Assembly: GCA_947475205.1 (NCBI GenBank)
Contig: CANJNG010000003.1
Coordinates: forward strand, 5,726-69,725
Origin: Bacteroidota bacterium
Lineage (GTDB): Bacteria; Bacteroidota; Bacteroidia; JAIBAJ01
DNA length: 64,000 nucleotides
Direction: 5' to 3'
Within the stretch, counting starts at the first letter, position 1; each line of letters begins with the position of its first letter. Below are positions 3,071 to 36,308 of the stretch, in pieces. Position numbers and translations under genes: made by a program. The notes beneath the pieces are model-generated. The model was not told where the DNA came from, did no database searches, and was given only the letters and a program-made list of their open reading frames with translations.

Positions 3071-6000
3071 GTGTCAAATGGTATAGTTTCGGTCTGGAAA
3101 TTCCTATCGGGGATTCGGGCAATTGCAATCCTGGTATTTATCGGCATTTTTGGTTTGGCCGCTTGGCAAGCCAGCAAAATTGAGCTGAATGAAGACATTT
3201 CGGCCTTTGTGCCGCAGGACGAAAACACGGCAAAAGCCACTGCCGTGCTCGAACAATCGGGCATAGCCGATAAAATAATCATTCAGATCTATGGAGAACA
3301 GTCGGACAATGAGGAAGCCTTAATGCAGGTGGCCGATTCGCTAGAAAAGGATTTAGAATCTGCCGAATTTTCAATCGTGGTTAAGCGGGTAAACTACCTC
3401 AGCCCCGACACGGTTTTAGAAACTTTCCTCGACCTGTTTTATGCTCACCTGCCCGTATTTCTCCACGATTCGGATTATGCCCTATATAAGCCCCTACTGA
3501 GCGACACAGGTACATTCAGGTTGCTTTCTGCCCTCAAAGAAAATCTCGAAAATCCTGCTTCCATCTTTAGTGCACAGTTTGCAGCCAAAGACCCGGCAGG
3601 GGTTTATACAAAAGCATTTTCCAAACTTAAAAGCGTTCAACCCGATAGCAATTTTGATATTTATGAAGGTCGTATTTTTTCATCCGACCACAAAAATCTG
3701 CTCCTTTTCATTACACCAAAATATCCGGCAAGCAACACTAGGCAAAATGGCGAACTGCTCAATAAACTGAATGCTTCCATAGCCAAAGCGAAGACGGGTT
3801 CGGCAGTGAATGTATCGGTTTATGGTGGCCCGGTGGTGGCACTAAGCAATAGCCGCCAAATGAAACACGATACGGTTTTCACCTCCATTTTAGCTGCGGT
3901 CTGCATCCTGCTTTTGCTGTTGGCCTTTTACCGCAGTGTATGGCTTACTTTTTTGGTATTTGTTCCGGTGTTGTTTGGTGCGGTGTGTTCGCTGGGATTG
4001 ATAAGTATTTTTAAGGGGGAAGTGTCGGCCATTGCCATCGCTGCCGGAAGCATTGTGATGGGCATTGCCATTAATTATGCCTTGCACTACATCACGCATT
4101 TGAAGCACGAAAAGTCAATTGCCAAAACCCTTGCCGAAATTGCCCGACCCATGCTTTTGGGTTGCGTTACCACAGCGGGTGCCTTCTTCGGGCTGTGTTT
4201 GGTCAAATCGGAAGCCTTGCAGCAATTGGGGCTTTTTGCGGGGCTTACGCTGATTTTTTCGGCGGCGGCCACCATGCTTGTATTGCCGCTATTGACATCT
4301 GACAACATTTCCATAAAAGAGGAAAGCACCCTGAAAGTTTCAAGGTTTGCGGTGTTGGATTATATCCGTGATAAATCTGAAACCTGGCCTGTGTTTTTGG
4401 TGGTGATACTGCTCACCATCGGTTTTTATTTCTTTTCGGGAAATGCTGAATTTGATAATGATTTGATGAAGGTGAATTATCTGGATCCTGAAACATTGGC
4501 GGCAGAAAAGAAGCTCGAATCTATCAGCAGCCATTCGCTTCGGAGTATTTATCTGGCCAATCAAAGTGCAACTGAAGAAGAGGTTCTGATTTCCAACGAA
4601 AGCACAGATTCAACGCTTTCGGCACTTAAAAGCAAGGGTGATTTGCAACATTATATTGTTCCATCTGCTTTGATTCCTTCGCTACAAACTCAGCATAAAC
4701 GTATTGCCCGCTGGGAAAATTTCTGGTCAAGAGAAACCATTGAAAGGGCGAAACAAAACCTCGAAACTCAAGGAAAGAAGTTGGGATTTAAGGCAAGTGC
4801 ATTCTCGGCCTTCTTTGCAAATATCGAAACGGCCAATCAGCCTTTATCAACTGAAAATAAAGATTGGTTGCGAAGCATTTTCTTTCAAGATTTTATGTTT
4901 CACAAAGCCGGGAATTGGTATATCATTTCCCAAATAAAAACTACCGAAACAAAACGAAATGCGGTAACCGAAACCCTGGCTCAAAGCCCGGACGCTATGT
5001 TGCTCGACAAGCAATTTCTTACCCGAAAATTTATCAGTTTGGTGAAGGAAGATTTCAGCACCATTCTTTGGGTGTCGGGCGGACTGGTATTTATAGTGCT
5101 GCTGTTAAGTTACGGAAGGATAGAACTTACCCTGATTAACTTCCTACCGATGTTGCTGAGTTGGATTTGGCTGTTGGGCCTGATGTCGATATTCGGGTTA
5201 AAGTTCAACATCGTAAACATCATCATCGGAACCCTGATATTTGGGTTAGGCGACGATTACAGCATTTTTGTTTTGGGTGGAATGCTCGAAGAGTTTAAAA
5301 CCGGGAAAAAGCTGTTGCCATCTTTCAAGACTTCTATTTTTCTGTCGGCAGCCACAACGTTTATCGGGGTGGGCGTGCTCATATTTGCCACACACCCTGC
5401 CCTGAAAAGTATTGCATCGGTTACCATTATAGGAATGGTTGGGGTGTTGGTTATATCGCTTACGGTTGCTCCATTTCTGTTTCGCATCCTGGCATTAGAC
5501 CGCAAGAAGAAAGGCTATCTTCCCTATACGGCTTCGGCCTTTGTGTTGTCGTTTATTGCATTTTTCTACTTCATAATAGGGTGCAGTGTGCTGAATATTG
5601 TTGGGTTCGTGCAGTTTAAAATCCTTCGGCAACGCAGCAAAGCGGCCAAAATGTTTTTCCACCGGGTGTTGAGTTGGTTTACGGGAAGCCTCGTTTACCT
5701 GATGGCCAATGTGAAAAAGAAAATCATCAATACCTCGGGGGAGACGTTTGAAAAGCCTGCTATCATTATTAGCAATCATCAAAGCTTTTTGGATATTCTA
5801 ACCATTACCATGCTTTCTCCAAGGATGATTTTGCTGACGAACGAATGGGTTTGGAATTCGCCGTTTTTTGGAACGTTCATTAAGTACGCCGACTATTTAC
5901 CGGTAGCCGATGGGATAGAGCATAATGTGGAGAAAATCCGCAACATCGTTAATCAGGGCTATAGCGTTTTGGTTTGGCCCGAAGGCACTCGCAGTCCCAA

Positions 6001-13113: not shown

Positions 13114-14466
13114 TTAGTTTGGAAGAATTGAGGTATGCAAAAGCTGAAAATTTGGACCTTTGCTGCAATTTCCAATAAAACTTACGTCATATTTCAATTT
13201 TGATATTCGTAATGTGTATGATGGGGTCGAACTTATATCGTCAGTTGCTTTTAAATCACATTTAATCATAATATTATATGCATCTTCCTCCAAGATTTTA
13301 TATGTTCCTAAATAATTGGACTTTTTTTCTGCTGTGCCGTGCCTCAAAAAGGCTTCATTGTTATGCATAAAGACAAAATCATAGCTACATTCAGGAATTA
13401 GTAACCTATTGCCATAAAGACCTACTATTTCATTACAATTTTCACGTTTCATAAAGTAGCTTTCTTGGTAACCTGTATAAGCTCCAAGAAACTCATCTGG
13501 CAATTCTTCATGACTTCTTACGTCCGGCATCCAATAAATTGAAAGAATAACACTAACGATAATAAAAGCAATAAATGTGATTCGAAAGTTCACAGAGCGA
13601 ATGAGTGAACCAAAAGTAAAAGTTGGGTTGTATTTCAGAGTGAAATATCCAATAACACCAATTGTAATAGCAAATAAAAAAATTAACAGTAAAATACTTA
13701 GCGGTGACAATGCCTTTTCATTTTCTTCAATCTTTATTGCTTTTATCGAAGCGTTAATAGAGTCTTCCATAAATGCTTCATTCGCAATATTTATTGAATC
13801 AATTCTGTTTATGCTATCCCTTCTATTTTTATTTCTTACTTCCAAATCAATTTTAGAAGTAGAGGGTTCTTCTCTAATTACTTTGCCTTCAAGCAGGATT
13901 TGTTCTGTTTGGGGTGGTTCAACAATTTTGCCATCATCATATCTTAAGAAAATCTTTTTTGTAAGTGAAGGGCAACATCGACTGTCATCATCATCATACA
14001 GCATTGAGGAACAATAAATACTTCCCTTGTAGGCCTCGTTAACATTATAATCAAAATCATTGTTATTCCGAAGTTCACTTTTTAAAATGGAAGCACTTAG
14101 TGTAAACACATTCTCATTAAATAAATAAATGGCAAAACCTGATTCTATGCAATAGTCAAACATTAATGCATTTCCTTCTTGTTCTTGATCGTTGTCATCA
14201 TCCGTTGATTGAACACAATAATCCAAAAAGGCATCTACCTCATGGTCGTTATTTAAATCACTAAAAAAAACTTCAATTTTAATATTACTCCCTTCATATT
14301 TATTTTTTAAAAGTTTAATGTGTTTATTAATTACAGCCTGCTCCATATCAACGTATTGATATGGCGATAAATACTGCCCTTTATCAACTTTTTGTCCGAA
14401 GCCTATTTGGAGGCAATAAAGAAATATTAAAATAGCGACACTTAATGGTTTGTATAAATTTGTCAT
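13114..14466 (-). CDS. AT-rich orphan membrane protein (signal peptide, exported N-domain, two TM helices, C-domain)
   Basis: 450-aa ORF with a Ca-loop-like 'DLNNDHEVD', a 'DSRCCPS' motif reminiscent of LppP/LprE-type domains, and two internal hydrophobic helices. Visibly more AT-rich than prfC and nadB. Confidence 0.7.
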   Translation of the reverse strand: MTNLYKPLSVAILIFLYCLQIGFGQKVDKGQYLSPYQYVDMEQAVINKHIKLLKNKYEGSNIKIEVFFSDLNNDHEVDAFLDYCVQSTDDDNDQEQEGNALMFDYCIESGFAIYLFNENVFTLSASILKSELRNNNDFDYNVNEAYKGSIYCSSMLYDDDDSRCCPSLTKKIFLRYDDGKIVEPPQTEQILLEGKVIREEPSTSKIDLEVRNKNRRDSINRIDSINIANEAFMEDSINASIKAIKIEENEKALSPLSILLLIFLFAITIGVIGYFTLKYNPTFTFGSLIRSVNFRITFIAFIIVSVILSIYWMPDVRSHEELPDEFLGAYTGYQESYFMKRENCNEIVGLYGNRLLIPECSYDFVFMHNNEAFLRHGTAEKKSNYLGTYKILEEDAYNIMIKCDLKATDDISSTPSYTLRISKLKYDVSFIGNCSKGPNFQLLHTSILPN

Positions 14467-14470
14467 AATT

Positions 14471-15130
14471 CTATCTAAAACACCTCATGAAAAAATCTCT
14501 GGAAAGCAGATTGTGAAGTTTAAAGCGAAAATGGCCATTTCTGACATTTTCAGGCATTTCTTCTTTACTAATTAATATTGGTTTGGGTAGCATTATTAAA
14601 TCTTCCGTTTTAAATTTAACGTTTAATATATTTCTAGGAATTCTTCTGCAATCGTCAAAAGTTTCAACGCGAGCACCAACATTAATTAATTCGTTTCTCA
14701 TTAATTGAATTGTAGCCAATTCGGCACCAAGTGGCTCCATAAAATAATTGTAGACTACTTGAGCTTCATTGATTGATATACCTATCATATTTTTACAATA
14801 GGCAACAATGAAAATTCCTGCAACTGGCTCGCTTCTTATTGTGTAAAATACAACTTCGTATGGTTTGCCTATTTTGTCCTTAGCCTTGAATGCTTGAACA
14901 AATCCGTATCGCCATCCATCCTTAGTTAAAATTCCATCATTTCTATTTAACCATTCTTCATGTCCGTAGTTATTAGGGGAGCATTCGAATAAGGAATTTC
15001 TTTGGCATTTACCATAACGACTACTCGGTTTTTCCCATTTGTTATCGTTTGGAGTTAGTCTTGTAATATACATTTTGTTTGTTTTATTGTTTGTTTTTGT
15101 TTGATAAATTCCTAGCCCCGAAAAGTACAT
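14471..15130 (-). CDS. AT-rich cytoplasmic hypothetical protein
   Basis: 219-aa ORF (start may be ATG 15073) with motif 'WEKPS...GK...YGHEEWL...DGWRYGFVQ'. Confidence 0.7.
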   Translation of the reverse strand: MYFSGLGIYQTKTNNKTNKMYITRLTPNDNKWEKPSSRYGKCQRNSLFECSPNNYGHEEWLNRNDGILTKDGWRYGFVQAFKAKDKIGKPYEVVFYTIRSEPVAGIFIVAYCKNMIGISINEAQVVYNYFMEPLGAELATIQLMRNELINVGARVETFDDCRRIPRNILNVKFKTEDLIMLPKPILISKEEMPENVRNGHFRFKLHNLLSRDFFMRCFR

Positions 15131-15490: not shown

Positions 15491-15565
15491 ATAAAAATAC
15501 CATTTTACCCAAAAACACCCCTCCAGCCCAATAGAATCAAGCCTTTGCAATTCAGAAAAAGTGCG

Positions 15566-15838
15566 GTAGAAATTAATTCGGGGGTGGTAGAAACTCTACA
15601 AGGGTCGGTAGAAATTCAACCTTGCCCGGTAGAAATCAAACCGGATGCGTTAGAAACCCTACTAGGGTCGGTAGAAATTCAACCTTGCCCGGTAGAAATC
15701 AAACCTGACGTGGTAGAAACTCTACATAGGTCGGTAGAAATTCTACCGGATGTGGTAGAAGCTAAACAAGAGTTGGTAGAAATTCAACCCTAACCAGTAG
15801 AAACCCTACCCAGCCCGGTAAAAATTCATATATCCCCC
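15566..15838 (+). repeat. Tandem array of 13 x 21-nt units with a conserved GTAGAAA head
   Basis: Units start at 15566, 15587, 15608 ... 15818 with exact 21-nt spacing. Units 3 and 6 are identical; units 2/5/8 and 4/7 are related. Confidence 0.92.
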
Positions 15839-17440
15839 CTAAAACTTCCTGCTGCTTCCTTCGCCCGGCTTATAATCCACCGAATAATGCAAACCCCGGC
15901 TTTCCTTGCGTTTCATCGCACTCCGAATAATTATATACCCAATATTAATCAAGTTCCGCAATTCGCAAAGCTGCGGCGAAACCGTAGTGCGGTCATACAA
16001 GTCTTCGTTTTCTTGATAAATAATATTCAGGCGGTCCAAGGCACGCTTTAACCGAAGATCCGACCGCACAATACCCACATAACTACTCATTATTTGCTGC
16101 ACTTCACGCAGGTTTTGAGTAATCAGAACCATCTCTTCCGGATACGAAGTTCCGCTATCGTTCCAATCTGGAATATTGCCCTCAATAGAAATATTCCCTA
16201 TCGCTTTCGAGGCATCCAGTGCAGCTCGGTGGGCATAGACCACAGCTTCTAAAAGCGAGTTCGAAGCCAAACGATTCGCCCCATGCAGCCCCGTACTGCT
16301 ACATTCTCCGGCAGCATACAAATTCTCTATCGACGACCTGCCCCACATATCTACTTTAATTCCCCCACAGATATAGTGAGCCGCAGGCACCACAGGAATA
16401 AAATCTTTAGCCATATCTATCCCTATGCTTTTGCATTTAGCATAAATATTAGGAAAATGTTTAACAATCTCGTCAGGGTCAAGATGTGTACAATCAAGCC
16501 AAACATGCTCATGACCCAGAGTTTTCAACTCATTGTCAATAGCCCTTGCCACAATGTCTCGTGGAGCAAGCGAACCCTGTTTGTCATACTTCTGCATAAA
16601 CTCCTTACCGTTTTTCGTTCGAAGCAAACCACCTAAGCCCCTTACAGCTTCACTAATCAGGAAGCTCGGACGCTTAGCCGCTGCATTGTATAACGATGTT
16701 GGGTGAAACTGTATAAACTCCATATTCTCCACCCGCCCCTTGGCTCGGTAAACCATTGCAATGCCATCGCCGGTTGCAATCACCGGATTGGTTGTATTTT
16801 CATACACATTACCTGCCCCCCCTGTAGCCATCAAAGTAGTTTTTGCCAAAATGGTTTCCACCTTTCCGGTTTTCAAATTCAACACATACACCCCAAAACA
16901 CTTTACATCTGGTGTGTTTTTGTTTACCTCCACACCCAAATGGTGCTGGGTAATAATATCAACAACAAAAAAATGGTCGTGAATAATGATGTTAGAATTA
17001 CTGCGAGCTTGTTCGAGCAAGGCTCGTTCAATTTCAAATCCTGTTTTATCTTTATAGTGAAGGATTCGTTTCTCGCTGTGGCCGCCTTCCTTCGCCAAAT
17101 CATACTCCCCATCCGGCATTTTGTCGAACTTGGTTCCCCATTCTGCCAATTCAATAACCCGCTCGGTGCTTTCAGTTATCACCATCCGCACCACGGCCTC
17201 ATCGCATAGGCCATCCCCACATTCAAGCGTATCTTTTATGTGTTTTTCGTAACTGTCGGGCTCATGAATTACGGCAGCTATTCCGCCTTGAGCATATTTG
17301 GTATTGCTCTCATCTTCGTTATCTTTGGTGAGCATAATCACCTTCCCGTGGTCTGCAACTTTAAGGGCATAGGTAAGCCCCGCAATACCGGAGCCAATAA
17401 CGAGAAAATCGGTTTGGATTTGTTTCGATTCAGTTTTCAA
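15839..17440 (-). CDS. nadB: L-aspartate oxidase
   Basis: 'GSGIAG', 'TKYAQGGIA', 'QFHPT', 'LHGANRLASNSLLE', 'RKESRGLH'. Confidence 0.96.
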   Translation of the reverse strand: MKTESKQIQTDFLVIGSGIAGLTYALKVADHGKVIMLTKDNEDESNTKYAQGGIAAVIHEPDSYEKHIKDTLECGDGLCDEAVVRMVITESTERVIELAEWGTKFDKMPDGEYDLAKEGGHSEKRILHYKDKTGFEIERALLEQARSNSNIIIHDHFFVVDIITQHHLGVEVNKNTPDVKCFGVYVLNLKTGKVETILAKTTLMATGGAGNVYENTTNPVIATGDGIAMVYRAKGRVENMEFIQFHPTSLYNAAAKRPSFLISEAVRGLGGLLRTKNGKEFMQKYDKQGSLAPRDIVARAIDNELKTLGHEHVWLDCTHLDPDEIVKHFPNIYAKCKSIGIDMAKDFIPVVPAAHYICGGIKVDMWGRSSIENLYAAGECSSTGLHGANRLASNSLLEAVVYAHRAALDASKAIGNISIEGNIPDWNDSGTSYPEEMVLITQNLREVQQIMSSYVGIVRSDLRLKRALDRLNIIYQENEDLYDRTTVSPQLCELRNLINIGYIIIRSAMKRKESRGLHYSVDYKPGEGSSRKF

Positions 17441-32238: not shown

Positions 32239-33350
32239 CTAATCTTTTAAGCACCTCACTGCATTTCCATGTATCTTACTTGAAGTGCTATACTTAGATG
32301 CCATATGAATTACAGGATTAGGAAAATTAGGGAACAAGTCAATATTAATTGTTTTAGCTAAAAATTAATCGGCCCGGTTGTTGAACTCCACCATTCAGCA
32401 CCTGTCCCAAAAACAACGCCGCCTAAACCGGAGCCAACAGCAGTAAAGCCACTTAAATTTGTTGCTGTTGCATTATATCCAGCTACCCAATGTGCTGAAC
32501 CTATTTCTGTCATCATATCGCCACTAATAGTATCATATTGAGGTTGATTTGGATTTAGATAGGTACGCAATGTTCCCCATTCTGTTATAGAAGGCAGATG
32601 CCAACCTGCTGGGCATGCATTACGGGAATCAGTAACAGTGTACCAAGAATAATATTTTCCATAGGGAACATCCAATGCAGATGAATCTCTGTACCAACAC
32701 CATTGACTTGTTGTTGTATCTGCAATGTTACTTGACCATTCACCAGAAAAATATGTAAGATTGTTTATTGGATCCCCATTCGCAAACCGTGTCGTTCTCA
32801 AATTCTGCTGCATCCATTCCTGTGTGCCCAATATAATAGAGGTATAAGTGTTGCCGTCAATATCGGTTACTCCGTTACCCATGGTATAGATGTCTCCCGT
32901 AGTAAAGCTTACTTCGTTGCCGTAGGCTGTGCCTGCACTGTTTATGGCTTAGGCCCTAACGTAATAGGTAGTGTTTGCACTCAAGCCTGTTAGGGTGCTG
33001 GTGTAGCTTCCTGTGCCGGTGCCTGTACCGTTTAGGGTGGTGTCGTTAGCAGTTGTTGGGCTGGTGGTGGTTGCCCAGCATACGCCACGGTGGCTTATGG
33101 TGCTGCCGCCATCGGCGGTTATATTGCCTCCGCTTAATGCACTGGGGCCGCTTATGCCCGTTACGCCGGTTGTGGTAATGGTGGCTAAGGTGCCCGGGGT
33201 CATAATCTCGTATGTTATGCTATCAATAGTAGAGATATCTATTTGCAGAACCTGTCCATTGCTCTGGTAGATGTTCATATAGGTTTGAGCTTTGGAATTG
33301 ACAATTGATAATTGACAAATGATAATTAAGAGGAGGATGAACTTGTTCAT
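32239..33350 (-). pseudogene. FN3-like + FISUMP (Fib_succ_major) secreted protein, interrupted by an in-frame TAA and a 1-nt frameshift
   Basis: 'YYVRA*AINSAGTAYG' (TAA at 32949-51) continues in frame into 'TDIDGNTY..IILGTQEWMQQNLRTT' and 'CPAGWHLPS'. Adding one base to the A5 run at 32360-64 restores '...GNAVRCLKD*', ending at 32239 (371 codons). Confidence 0.85.
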
Positions 33351-33684
33351 TGGTATTAGTTTTGAAATCCAAAGATATAGATTGTAGTTGTCTGCTTAAC
33401 TTTTTTAAGTAAATGCACTTATGAAGAAGAAAAAATATTGTGGGCTAAACCGAATAGCTTTAACACAAAATTCCTTCACAATTTATTAACAGAGAATATT
33501 GTCACCATCGCAAATAAACGCTGAAAGGGAGCCATTCCTGCAAAGGATATTGCTTCGCAACTACCCATTCAACGAAGTTATGTACATTATAAAGGAACAG
33601 CTACCACACATAGGCTTTCACTTCTGTTTATTGTTGCCTACAATTATCCTTTTAAAATTTCTGCTCTATACTCCCTTCCAATTT

Positions 33685-33930
33685 CAACCAATATAGCTTC
33701 GATATTGGTTATGTTTTCTCCATATCAACCAATATAGCTTCAATATTGGTTAGTTTTTCCCAATATCAACCAATATAGCTTCGATATTGGTTAGTTTTTT
33801 CCTATATCAACCAATATAGCTTCAATATTGGTTAGTTTTTTTCCATATCAACCAATATAGCATCAATATTGGTTAGTTTTTTTCAATCTTAACCAAGATA
33901 GCATCAATCTTGGTTAGTTTGAGTTTCAAC
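33685..33930. repeat. Tandem array of 6 x 41-bp units, each with a 9-bp inverted repeat around a 7-nt loop and a T-rich linker
   Basis: Units start at 33685, 33726, 33767, 33808, 33849 and 33890. Core AACCAATAT-agc(t/a)tc(a/g)-ATATTGGTT; unit 6 is AACCAAGAT/ATCTTGGTT. Confidence 0.95.
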
Positions 33931-34116
33931 TGTTGCTTTAATCGGTTATCGGGCATGTTAAAATCCTTTTTGGTTTGATATTCAGTGATATATTCATTTT
34001 ATTGAAAAATAATTTACATTTCACACAATAAAAAACACAACGGTGCGTTATCTCTACAAGATATTCGGAGCACACGCATCCGGAATCGTTTTATTAACAA
34101 TTTAATTTTTTACAAA

Positions 34117-34734
34117 ATGAAAAAAGTAAAATTAGGGCTAAGTAATCTTAGCTCATTGCAACTGGCCGCAAAAGCCCAGCACCTTGTAACAATGCTTACA
34201 GGCAATGCAAATTTTGTAACTCCAAACCCCACCTTAGTTTTTATCTTGGGGCTTATGAACGCACTATTACTTGCCGTGGAGGATGCTTCCAATGGCGATA
34301 AAGTGAAAAAAGCTGCCGAACGCACTGCATACACCAACCTTAAAAACGCAATTGTGCTTTTGGGTGGCTATGTGCAAGAGGCGAGCGGTGGCGATGAAAC
34401 CAAAATCCTGAGTTCGGGATTTGAGGTAGTAGGTCAAAGGCATCCGCAGAGTGTATTGACTGCAGTTGAAAACGTGCATTCGATTGCTACCAACATCGAG
34501 CATCAAGTTATTTTGAAATGGAATAATTTGAAAGGGGCTAGTGCATACCTTATCTCGTTTGCCGAAAACCCCGATGGTGATTGGATAATTGTTACTGCAT
34601 GCACTAAGGCCGCAATTACGCATTCGCTTAATGGCCTTCCCATTGGCACAACAAAAGTGTGGGTAAAGGTGGCCGGGGTAAACGCTGCCGGAGTGGGGGC
34701 ATATTCTGCTGCTATTAGCGTTAGGGTGCTGTAA
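34117..34734 (+). CDS. Uncharacterised cytoplasmic protein: helical N-domain plus C-terminal fibronectin type III domain
   Basis: 205 aa, no signal peptide; FN3 pattern 'VILKW..LKGASAYLI...W...SLNGL...VWVKVAGVNAAGVGAYS'. Confidence 0.85.
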   Translation: MKKVKLGLSNLSSLQLAAKAQHLVTMLTGNANFVTPNPTLVFILGLMNALLLAVEDASNGDKVKKAAERTAYTNLKNAIVLLGGYVQEASGGDETKILSSGFEVVGQRHPQSVLTAVENVHSIATNIEHQVILKWNNLKGASAYLISFAENPDGDWIIVTACTKAAITHSLNGLPIGTTKVWVKVAGVNAAGVGAYSAAISVRVL

Positions 34735-34754
34735 TTGGCCTTGTCCTTTTTGAG

Positions 34755-34790
34755 AAACCGACCTTAGCGTGTGAAAGGGTCGGTTTTTTT
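34755..34790 (+). terminator. Intrinsic terminator of the FN3 gene
   Basis: AAACCGACC...GGTCGGTTT followed by a T run. Confidence 0.8.
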
Positions 34791-34874
34791 GTGAGCAATT
34801 TGCAATGGATTATTGATACGGTGATGACTTATACAACCAAATAGCTTTCCTTTGTAAATCTTAGCATTTACAAC

Positions 34875-36308
34875 GTGTCGCCCCGTTCGCAGCATTTTCT
34901 TACCTTACTTTTAAAGAACTTCTCACACCAGCCGCTTCCCGGGCAGTTGGAGTTTATGAAGCACTTTTCGGAATTTATGGCCGATGGGACTTCGATGGAA
35001 GTTTTCATTCTGAAAGGATATGCCGGAACCGGAAAAACATCACTGGTGAAAAGCATCATTAAGTCTTTACCCGCTTTAAAGTTTAAAAGTCTGCTGCTTG
35101 CCCCTACAGGCCGGGCAGCAAAGGTCTTGGGCAGCTATTCAGATAAGCGAGCATTTACCATCCATTCTAAAATCTACAAAATGTCCACAAATGCTTTTGG
35201 TGGCATTTTCTTTTCTCCGGCGGCCAATACCCAAACCGACACACTTTTTATAGTGGACGAAGCCAGTATGATTCACGGCGAAGATAGGGAAATGAAAACC
35301 GGAGGAATGGAAGCTACCGATGTTTTGGCCGATTTGCTCGAACATGTTTTTTCGGGCGAAAATTGCAAACTGCTCATCATTGGCGACACAGCTCAATTGC
35401 CGCCTGTGGGGTTAAATTTAAGCCCGGCTTTAGATGCGGACTTTCTTCAGCAAGCCTATCATTTAAATAAGATTTCAGTAACCGAACTAACCGAAGTGGC
35501 CCGCCAAAGCAGTGGAAGTAATATTTTAGCACAAGCCACCCGCATACGGCAATTTATAAGTGATGATTCGCTTGCCGAGGAACTTAAAATTTTGGCTAAA
35601 GATGATGTGGAGAACCTCGACAATGAAACGTTTTTAGACAATCTTAACTCCAGTTACGGCAAGCAGGGCTTCGACGAAAGTGTAATTATTACCCGAAGCA
35701 ACAAGCGAGCGAACCAATACAATATTGGAATCAGGGCAAGGGTGCTGTATCGGGAAGATGAAATTGGAGCCGGAGATATTTTGATGGTGGTGCGAAACAA
35801 TTATTTTTGGCTTCCGCCCGAATCGAAAGCCGGATTTATAGCCAACGGCGATTTTGTGGAGGTGCAACGAATCAAGAATTTCAGAGAGATGCACGGCCAC
35901 CGCTTTGCCGATGCCACGCTGCGAATGCTGGACTACCCCGATGATTCCCCTGTTGAATGCACATTACTGCTCGATGTGCTTGCTTTGGAATCGGCTAACT
36001 TGGGCTGGACAGAAAGTAAAGCTCTTTATGAATCGGTGTCGCAGGATTATATGGAGATTCTAGATAAACGCAAACGGGCTTTAGCCATTCGGCAAGATAA
36101 ATACCTGAATGCCTTGCAGGTGAAGTTTGGGTACGCCATTACTTGCCACAAAGCTCAAGGCGGACAATGGAATCACGTTTACCTCGACCACGGTTGGTTA
36201 GGCGAAAACTTCCTAACCAAAGAGTTTTATCGCTGGCTTTATACTGGCGTTACCCGTGCGAAGCAGAAATTATACTTGGTGAATTTCGCAAAGGCATTGG
36301 TGGAGTAG
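34875..36308 (+). CDS. RecD-like superfamily 1 ATP-dependent helicase
   Basis: Walker A 'GYAGTGKT', 'LAPTGRAAK', 'IVDEASMI', 'GDTAQLPPVG', 'YAITCHKAQG', 'YTGVTRA'. Confidence 0.9.
   Translation: MSPRSQHFLTLLLKNFSHQPLPGQLEFMKHFSEFMADGTSMEVFILKGYAGTGKTSLVKSIIKSLPALKFKSLLLAPTGRAAKVLGSYSDKRAFTIHSKIYKMSTNAFGGIFFSPAANTQTDTLFIVDEASMIHGEDREMKTGGMEATDVLADLLEHVFSGENCKLLIIGDTAQLPPVGLNLSPALDADFLQQAYHLNKISVTELTEVARQSSGSNILAQATRIRQFISDDSLAEELKILAKDDVENLDNETFLDNLNSSYGKQGFDESVIITRSNKRANQYNIGIRARVLYREDEIGAGDILMVVRNNYFWLPPESKAGFIANGDFVEVQRIKNFREMHGHRFADATLRMLDYPDDSPVECTLLLDVLALESANLGWTESKALYESVSQDYMEILDKRKRALAIRQDKYLNALQVKFGYAITCHKAQGGQWNHVYLDHGWLGENFLTKEFYRWLYTGVTRAKQKLYLVNFAKALVE

Follow-up and report, generated by a model that had tools for sequence, protein, structure and literature searches.

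What does a row of near-identical palindromic units do directly upstream of a small gene? The question is raised by a stretch of 64,000 nucleotides from a Bacteroidota bacterium (assembly GCA_947475205.1, contig CANJNG010000003.1, positions 5,726 to 69,725; hereafter the window), in which six tandem 41-bp units precede the gene of a 205-residue protein whose C-terminal half is a fibronectin type III (FN3) domain. An original prediction, made by reading this sequence, had offered three kinds of answer, namely an operator or cruciform array phased by helical turns, a set of tandem terminators, or a repeat RNA acting as partner of the protein in the manner of type III antitoxins. Comparison of related loci shows that arrays with a period of two helical turns, or a multiple of it, are strongly and specifically associated with this gene family. 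On the basis of these sequence comparisons, we give about an even chance to the array being a row of sequence-specific protein-binding sites that lie on one face of the DNA and act on the adjacent promoter.

Anatomy of the array

The general design given by the original prediction, six units of 41 bp with perfect 9-bp arms around a 7-nt centre, was confirmed by Tandem Repeats Finder (TRF) and by a pattern scan. TRF reported one array at this place (33679-33920, period 41, 5.9 copies, 90% matches, 0 indels, score 358), each unit being composed of a left arm AACCAATAT (9 bp), the 7-nt centre, a right arm ATATTGGTT (9 bp) and a T-rich spacer of 16 nt, not 15 nt as first counted (9+7+9+16 = 41). 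With up to three mismatches permitted, matches to AACCAATAT-N7-ATATTGGTT start at 33686, 33727, 33768, 33809, 33850 and 33891, in exact 41-bp steps; these six compare with 0.11 expected by chance, 0 of 100 shuffles reach six, and no further match lies outside the array in the 64-kb window. The centres read AGCTTCG/A or AGCATCA. The T-run lengthens from T4 to T7 along the array through T/C substitution at the boundary between T-run and C-run, without indels, so that the invariance of the period despite the changing T-run, at first considered worthy of mention, is trivial. Each unit itself contains TAGTTTTT, and only a weak 21/20-bp sub-repeat can be discerned within it. No open reading frame (ORF) of at least 40 residues crosses the array, which has stops in all six frames and ends 197 bp before the ATG of the gene.

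Unit 6 was carefully compared with the others, because its two arms had been reported to covary. Its left arm carries T>G and its right arm A>C, symmetry being kept and the stem being lengthened to 11 pairs, and to this extent the earlier observation holds. However, a third concerted change (ATATC > ATCTT) is found in the spacer before it, and, since TCAATCTT is present twice at a distance of 21 bp around this unit, the event is a concerted change in three copies of a short motif and not a simple covariation of a stem. The variant does not occur in the last unit of the array of locus L001. In four assemblies the same locus displays 6, 5, 3 and 4 units between near-identical flanks, the differences corresponding to whole units, although these counts are soft because short-read assembly may have collapsed repeats.

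When folded as RNA, a typical unit reaches -7.7 kcal/mol and unit 6 -11.7 kcal/mol, both beating shuffles (z about -4); the hairpins are weak, with two G-C pairs per stem. Two familiar classes of repeat were discarded. The 16-nt linkers are near-identical T-rich copies and not the unique spacers of clustered regularly interspaced short palindromic repeats (CRISPR), and repetitive extragenic palindromes (REP) or their mosaic elements (BIME) do not fit either, all six full matches being inside the array and half-site counts elsewhere in the 64 kb being at chance level.

The downstream gene and its protein

The gene is self-contained and has its own terminator, as had been proposed (34117-34734, with a hairpin of -18.7 kcal/mol at 34752-34789). 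AlphaFold models divide its product into a helical bundle (residues 1-105, the N-domain) and an FN3 sandwich (residues ~107-205), with predicted local distance difference test (pLDDT) values of 88 (complete protein) and 96 (N-domain modelled by itself). The FN3 assignment of the C-terminal half, also made earlier, proved genuine: in profile searches it matches thousands of FN3 repeats, PDB sequences match too, and Foldseek returned FN3 domains only (template modelling score to target 0.6-0.8). The window protein falls below the threshold of Pfam FN3 (PF00041), and its homolog P0002 matches. A library-wide profile search was swamped by giant multi-FN3 proteins, being informative for the FN3 half only.

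Regarding the N-domain, Foldseek gave no match to solved structures (best E 1.2), and no helix-turn-helix appears in the model. Its profile search found the domain confined to proteins of the same two-domain architecture, of 100-210 residues, and alignments reveal invariant residues in two of its loops, GN..[FY]..P.P.L and YVQ.AS.GD...IL.SG. The complete protein was assigned to no Pfam, NCBIfam, PADLOC or informative PHROG family, and no signal peptide is visible in it, this being the sole basis for calling it cytoplasmic.

Arrays upstream of related genes

Protein database searches yielded 14 homologs at first and 40 with the N-domain profile, whose contigs were then retrieved; scans of GTDB species genomes gave 17 loci and those of JGI metagenomes 22. 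Hosts comprise Chitinophagaceae, Prolixibacteraceae, other Bacteroidota and several Verrucomicrobiota, the loci lie on chromosomal contigs of metagenome-assembled genomes (up to 3.9 Mb), and no member was found on viral contigs. All relatives come from metagenome assemblies, and many contigs end in or near the array (e.g., L019 and L023), those of L007, L009 and L011 all beginning 83 bp before the gene.

With each distinct sequence represented by one locus, 41 upstream regions of 800 bp were scanned by autocorrelation, an array being called where a 126-bp stretch showed at least 50% self-match, an arbitrary threshold below which array-less loci peak at 0.38-0.44. It is passed by 23 of the 41 regions, with best lags of 42 (10 loci), 21 (5), 63 (5), 41 (1), 22 (1) and 27 (1, REP-like). 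Arrays at lag 21, 22, 41, 42 or 63 are thus present in 22 of 41 upstream regions versus 5 of 209 control regions, taken from these loci and from other parts of the window, a comparison in which the near-duplicates L021/L043 and L032/L049 were counted once where noted and the loci are not fully independent phylogenetically. Eleven controls pass the threshold, six as coding repeats at other lags and five at 21, 42 or 63, one of the latter being a further-upstream array of the same kind. By TRF alone, the 19 kb examined upstream of the genes contain 12 arrays and 155 kb elsewhere contain 7, and 4 of those 7 lie further upstream of the same FN3-family gene.

Across Chitinophagaceae, Prolixibacteraceae, other Bacteroidota and Verrucomicrobiota, the period is 21 bp or a multiple in all cases but one (22 bp). 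The arrays contain 3 to 18 units and without exception lie on the 5' side of the gene, the distance to its ATG being usually 100-250 bp. The check proposed with the original prediction, namely whether homologs carry upstream arrays of conserved unit length and varying sequence, therefore gave a positive result. All-against-all BLAST of ORFs detected no conserved neighbour gene beside the family in 22 loci.

Between loci, array sequences are unrelated. The only words above shuffles are A-tracts, with A5/T5 in 9 of 23 arrays, a frequency that exceeds the 95th percentile of shuffles; a shared TTGG/CCAA motif, present in 11 of 23, was dropped as not significant after correction for multiple k-mers. 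Older, degenerate arrays exhibit an invariant core of 6-14 bp and a remainder that varies in up to half of the units, TTGGGA for example being kept in all 10 units of L017. The core is palindromic in about half of the arrays, the rest being plain direct repeats (Table 1). The units of L036 and L038 share the design of the window unit, including an AGC-rich 7-nt centre, and the T-run is not present in these hairpin arrays nor in that of L014.

Arm changes relative to the consensus pair, counted without the mis-registered L018, comprise 55 one-sided pair-breaking, 33 one-sided G·T, 5 compensatory and 3 double-broken cases, and often one arm is invariant while the other drifts, as in L017. Considering that these changes are mostly one-sided, pairing is not the conserved property, and the single compensatory event of the window is weak evidence on its own. 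Coding for heptad repeats (21 bp = 7 codons) was also tried and rejected: because no codon-phase pattern is seen and periods of 41 and 22 bp occur, it is not the source of the 21-bp period, and the window array, L014 and L047 have stops in six frames.

Position relative to the promoter

In one clade of the family, here clade A (L004, L013, L015, L018, L019, L020, L022, L026, L029, L041 and partly L028), the gene is preceded by a promoter-like motif TTTACAATTCCATGACAATTG...CAACATCAA...AAAGCGTTCTTA, which includes two GACAATT copies 11 bp apart, and by a leader of ~150 nt, ...GGTGAAGGTCCTC...AAACTGAAGACAG, followed by a hairpin with locus-specific arms. The leader is conserved as nucleotides and not as a peptide, its reading frames differing, and it has no Rfam match. 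Arrays of this clade lie upstream of the motif, and the 86-bp repeat of L015 takes in the motif itself. Motif and leader together represent a candidate new cis-regulatory RNA or operator.

Verrucomicrobial members have a conserved N-terminal extension of ~26-29 residues, MPFYD..ATYDSGL.YD, which the Bacteroidota proteins do not have. Since the extension shows synonymous differences, the true start is only ~25-80 bp past the last unit, and the Verrucomicrobial core promoter must therefore overlap the last units. These units bear a -35-like TTGGGA.

In the window, the presumed promoter occupies the interval between array and leader. The -7 box previously placed there was not substantiated, no canonical Bacteroidetes box (TAnnTTTG) being found between array and ATG (the best candidate is given in Table 1), and sigma-70-like matches at 33985-34029 are weak, with a frequency not above shuffles. 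Only the last part of the clade-A leader is shared, GCGTTATCT and then the hairpin at 34063-34086. This corresponds to an alternative stem, ATTCGGA/TCCGGAAT, the minimum-energy stem being at 34041-34082, and the window leader hairpin is the counterpart of that preceding the ribosome-binding site in clade-A homologs; on comparison of leaders, the counterpart hairpins have no U-run.

Phased binding sites as the favoured explanation

Considering (i) the two-turn period in more than 20 unrelated arrays, (ii) the invariant core combined with a free spacer, (iii) a dyad symmetry that is common yet dispensable, and (iv) the constant position relative to the promoter, the arrays appear to be sites on DNA. 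The suggestion of an operator-like array phased by helical turns is therefore the part of the original prediction that comparative data support, and it provides the best explanation. The array would be a cis-acting DNA element that immediately precedes the FN3 promoter or overlaps it, and its sites, separated by whole helical turns (a basic period of 21 bp, in the window 41 bp), would all be presented on one side of the duplex. A protein, which on palindromic units would probably be a dimer, would occupy the sites cooperatively and thereby control transcription of the FN3 gene, and gain or loss of whole units would tune this control; protein binding, cooperativity and transcriptional output are the steps that we infer. 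Autoregulation by the FN3 protein is the simplest guess, because the FN3 gene alone always travels with the arrays.

Well-known operators have a related geometry. The ARG boxes of ArgR are 18-bp palindromes spaced 21 bp centre to centre, and LytTR regulators recognise 9-bp direct repeats 21-22 bp apart; the arrays described here share with them the 21-bp centre-to-centre geometry and the palindromic or direct cores beside a promoter. On the contrary, those operators consist of two to four sites and have a known regulator, whereas here 6 to 18 sites and no regulator gene are found.

Several observations weigh against phased binding sites. Arrays are not obligatory, about 40% of the loci having none (L020, L026, L027, L039, L051 and others), genes intervene between array and FN3 gene in L004, L018 and L040, and the 41-bp period of the window is slightly off four turns. 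As modelled, the fold of the FN3 protein offers no support for DNA binding. In addition, clade-A proteins that are 60-78% identical have entirely different arrays or none; unless the specificity of the FN3 protein evolves fast, this speaks against its recognising particular sequences.

A more far-reaching proposal, which we put forward tentatively and with more doubt than confidence, is that array and gene form a self-contained two-part module in which the N-domain of the FN3 protein would recognise its own fast-evolving, two-turn-phased iterons within variable or defence islands of Bacteroidota and Verrucomicrobiota. Such a module could serve as a switch or sensor where cells are in conflict with phages or plasmids, and not in housekeeping regulation. 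If this is true, the FN3 protein, together with its cognate iterons, would define a new class of DNA-binding proteins; should it not be the binder, the arrays would point to another regulator, or else to promoters being built in a manner independent of sequence. A simple physical rule, a two-turn upstream array of any sequence, marks a small family of half-novel fold across two phyla. To our knowledge, few DNA regions other than plasmid origins and centromeres obey such a rule, and the present arrays do so without any origin or centromere genes, providing a clean experimental handle on an unannotated family situated among phage-defence genes. No published description of the module was found in the literature on repeat periodicity, iterons, defence islands, sopC and FN3, and, as Rfam, Pfam and PADLOC offered no precedent either, it is reasonable to regard the system as undescribed, in line with the original judgement.

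Alternative explanations

It is unlikely, in our estimation, that the arrays work as structural DNA irrespective of sequence, either as phased bends in a curved or wrapped upstream element or as duplicated promoter parts, through RNA polymerase or a general nucleoid protein. This would agree with a period that is conserved while the sequence is not, with A5/T5 tracts as the only enriched words and the T4-T7 run of the window unit, and with the duplication of the promoter-like motif in the L015 unit and the -35-like TTGGGA of the Verrucomicrobial units; it would also account for close protein relatives with unrelated arrays. Nonetheless, degenerate arrays combine a strictly invariant core with a free spacer, as is characteristic of sites recognised by their sequence, A-tracts are missing from many arrays (L023, L045, L024 and L036), and palindromic cores are far commoner than curvature alone needs. 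Cruciform formation, as contemplated in the original prediction, is unlikely given arms of just 9 bp with two G-C pairs around a 7-nt centre.

Iterons are the repeats of the Rep-iteron systems of theta-replicating plasmids and phages (R6K, P1, F, RK2), and their anatomy, direct repeats of ~17-22 bp at two turns with an invariant core and a variable spacer, in several to many copies, gene-adjacent and lineage-specific, is found in the present family as a whole (21-22-bp direct units, conserved core, 6-18 copies), the window unit itself being 41 bp. The arrays might accordingly belong to a conflict-related iteron module, as a decoy titrating a phage or plasmid initiator, as a landing site at which an invader protein switches on the FN3 gene, or as the origin or centromere of an integrated element with the FN3 protein as site-binding protein, a possibility to which we assign a low probability. 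Array sequences are fast-evolving and lineage-specific, insertion or deletion breakpoints fall at the module edge, and defence neighbours (PDC-S41, AbiU, PDC-S37, Hhe, MADS, type I restriction-modification, an MmeI fragment, a CRISPR array and, in the window, PDC-M16A) would suit such a role. On the contrary, the neighbour here is a gene for a helical bundle with FN3 in variable chromosomal context, and no Rep initiator (winged-helix), ParA/ParB or integrase gene is next to the module. BLAST of the window array against 50,697 phage and 72,556 plasmid records returned nothing, three unit motifs gave single chance-level matches only in 2.9 million viral contigs, and the family itself is absent from viral contigs.

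As for centromeres, the F plasmid has sopC, in which a 43-bp unit is repeated directly 12 times and SopB binds the 16-bp inverted repeat within each unit (PMC3177203). Of the systems compared here, sopC comes nearest in form to the window array, with ~four-turn units, one palindromic site in each, arranged head to tail. The window differs in having no sopA/sopB-like (ParA/ParB) genes and a single small gene downstream, and most relatives have 21-bp units; genes for ParA/ParM/TubZ NTPases or centromere-binding proteins were found neither around the window array nor in 22 related loci.

That the units are transcribed and act as a repeat RNA, either a type III-antitoxin-like partner of the protein or a processed small RNA, is very unlikely. 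Type III toxin-antitoxin loci are recognised by tandem repeats, a Rho-independent terminator and then the toxin gene (PMC12283969), an order that the window superficially fits. Each unit folds better than its shuffles, pairing is kept in unit 6, and repeats, hairpin, a gene of ~200 codons and defence contexts are shared with toxIN, cptIN and tenpIN. However, the protein is unrelated to those toxins in sequence and fold, without ToxN, AbiQ, CptN or TenpN signature, and neither unit length nor pairing is conserved: most homolog arrays have 21-22-nt units, many without hairpin or with 2-nt 'loops', and arm substitutions ignore pairing. A period of two DNA turns would be meaningless for an RNA, and in clade A the arrays precede the conserved promoter-like motif, or other genes stand between them and the FN3 gene. 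Rfam, applied at gathering threshold to the window and at E<=1 to six related loci, returned tRNAs and chance sub-threshold matches only. This part of the original prediction is consequently not supported.

The least credible explanation, already largely refuted by the comparative data, is a neutral minisatellite (variable-number tandem repeat, VNTR) or a set of tandem terminators or an insulator without link to the gene, since whole-unit copy-number differences between assemblies and a plus-strand hairpin with T-run are outweighed by independent arrays that recur at the same place by the same gene family in two phyla with the same period, by cores conserved in old arrays beside a T-run that related arrays do not conserve, and by weak stems with no co-directional gene upstream. 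Known promoter-proximal phase-variable VNTRs resemble the arrays in their whole-unit copy-number polymorphism just upstream of a promoter, but they mostly have 1-7-bp units and are species-specific, whereas here a two-turn period recurs across phyla with a gene family. Tandem intrinsic terminators, also contemplated originally, are not supported, because each unit has two G-C pairs and only -7.7 kcal/mol, unit 6 alone passes a terminator scan, the genes upstream of the array are on the opposite strand, leaving no plus-strand gene to terminate, and the T-run is missing from L036, L038 and L014.

Table 1. Positions and composition of the features of the window and of related loci (window coordinates unless a locus is given)
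Feature	Position	Strand	Composition or basis
Tandem array, six 41-bp units	33680..33925	.	TRF, pattern matches, unit listing
Units 1-5, identical 9-bp arms	33686..33874	.	Variation confined to centre positions 4 and 7 and to the spacer
Variant unit 6 and preceding spacer	33884..33917	.	TCAATCTT-AACCAAGAT-AGCA-TCAATCTT-GGTT
Array-to-leader spacer, presumed promoter	33926..34040	+	Best -7-like box TACATTTC at 34015
Leader hairpin, then CGTTTTATT	34041..34095	+	-14.4 kcal/mol, z -2.3
Gene for the 205-aa protein	34117..34734	+	ORF, alignments, structure models, FN3 matches
Intrinsic terminator of the FN3 gene	34752..34792	+	Hairpin AAACCGACC...GGTCGGTTT and T-run; folding
Array of L017			TTTGGGATaTCCCa, 10 units
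Array of L021			CGGACGGCGTTTGGGAGT, 9 units
Array of L023			22-bp unit, 9 units
Array of L024			21-bp unit, 16-18 units
Array of L029			CCAAACTTTCACTTGAC, 13 units
Array of L030			GCATTTTT-ATAC-AAAAATGC
Array of L045			ATGTTG-CC-CAACAT, 14 units
Array of L036			ATCCAAGT-AGCCTTC-ACTTGGAT in 42-bp unit, 6 units
Array of L038			TACCAAGT-N7-ACTTGGTA, 42 bp
Clade-A motif and leader	L004:5760-6000, L015:1550-1751, L018:4760-5000, L019:250-472, L020:2170-2423, L026:3400-3678, L029:4760-5000		
Verrucomicrobial N-terminal extension	L021:~4914-5000, L023:~228-302, L032:~4911-5000		

Genomic surroundings

The array and gene of the window are flanked by a lipoprotein-like gene and, directly downstream of the FN3 gene, by a RecD/PIF1-like helicase gene (34875-36308, plus strand) whose product is a full-length match to the PADLOC candidate PDC-M16A (E 4e-109). 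As a tendency and not a rule, the family sits in variable, defence-rich regions. PADLOC analysis of 105 neighbouring proteins identified AbiU, PDC-S37, Hhe, MADS components and type I restriction-modification. In L018, the 4 kb between array and gene encode PDC-S41 (E 1e-289), HpaII-like and HIRAN/PDC-M03B-like proteins, this PDC-S41 being a Schlafen-like helicase and the defence stretch extending over L018:1063-4593. In L040, a truncated MmeI N-terminus (L040:212-391) lies between array and gene; the L040 protein is 99% identical to that of the array-less L020, and the homology of the two loci begins exactly at the promoter motif. L022 displays a CRISPR array upstream (L022:7-1886, 47-nt repeat, 30-nt spacers); this 77-bp array, a true CRISPR array, was set aside.

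The lipoprotein-like gene upstream, of Fib_succ_major type, appears in the window as two ORFs of 133 and 174 residues (32358-33350, minus strand) and as one ORF of 365 residues at L001:1423-2520, a split that may be due to a frameshift, an assembly difference or variation in domain number. A 7/14-bp AATTGAC repeat lies at 33296-33327, within the part of this gene that codes for the signal peptide.

Other repeats in the window and in related loci

A second array of the window, at 15564-15804, has a 21-bp period (also scored at 42 and 63), ~12 units and, on the minus strand, an invariant core TTTCTACC. On one side it has an L-aspartate-oxidase-like gene (15839-17440, minus) and on the other two low-GC orphans (14471-15130 and 13114-14466, minus); a G-rich, possibly structured stretch of 430 bp follows it, and it fits the two-turn rule yet adjoins no FN3-family gene. 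Generalising the rule to it was tried and rejected, the neighbouring 219-residue protein having three relatives, of which two were examined and found without such an array.

A 21-bp signal at 801-1600 proved to be an AT-rich region with one long palindrome and not an array. The inverted repeat at 1184-1239 has perfect 27-bp arms and a 2-bp centre; the intergenic region around it (1045-1418), upstream of a minus-strand gene, is very AT-rich.

Among related loci, the arrays at L041:2217-2463 (21- and 27-bp periods) were set aside as REP-like hairpins beside a putative remnant of a REP-associated tyrosine transposase (RAYT). Remnants or copies of IS200/RAYT-type Y1 transposases are found near three members (L037:177-380, L038:8-448 and L041:2480-2700), as assigned from a precomputed Pfam Y1_Tnp match for L038 and from reading of the translation for L037 and L041.

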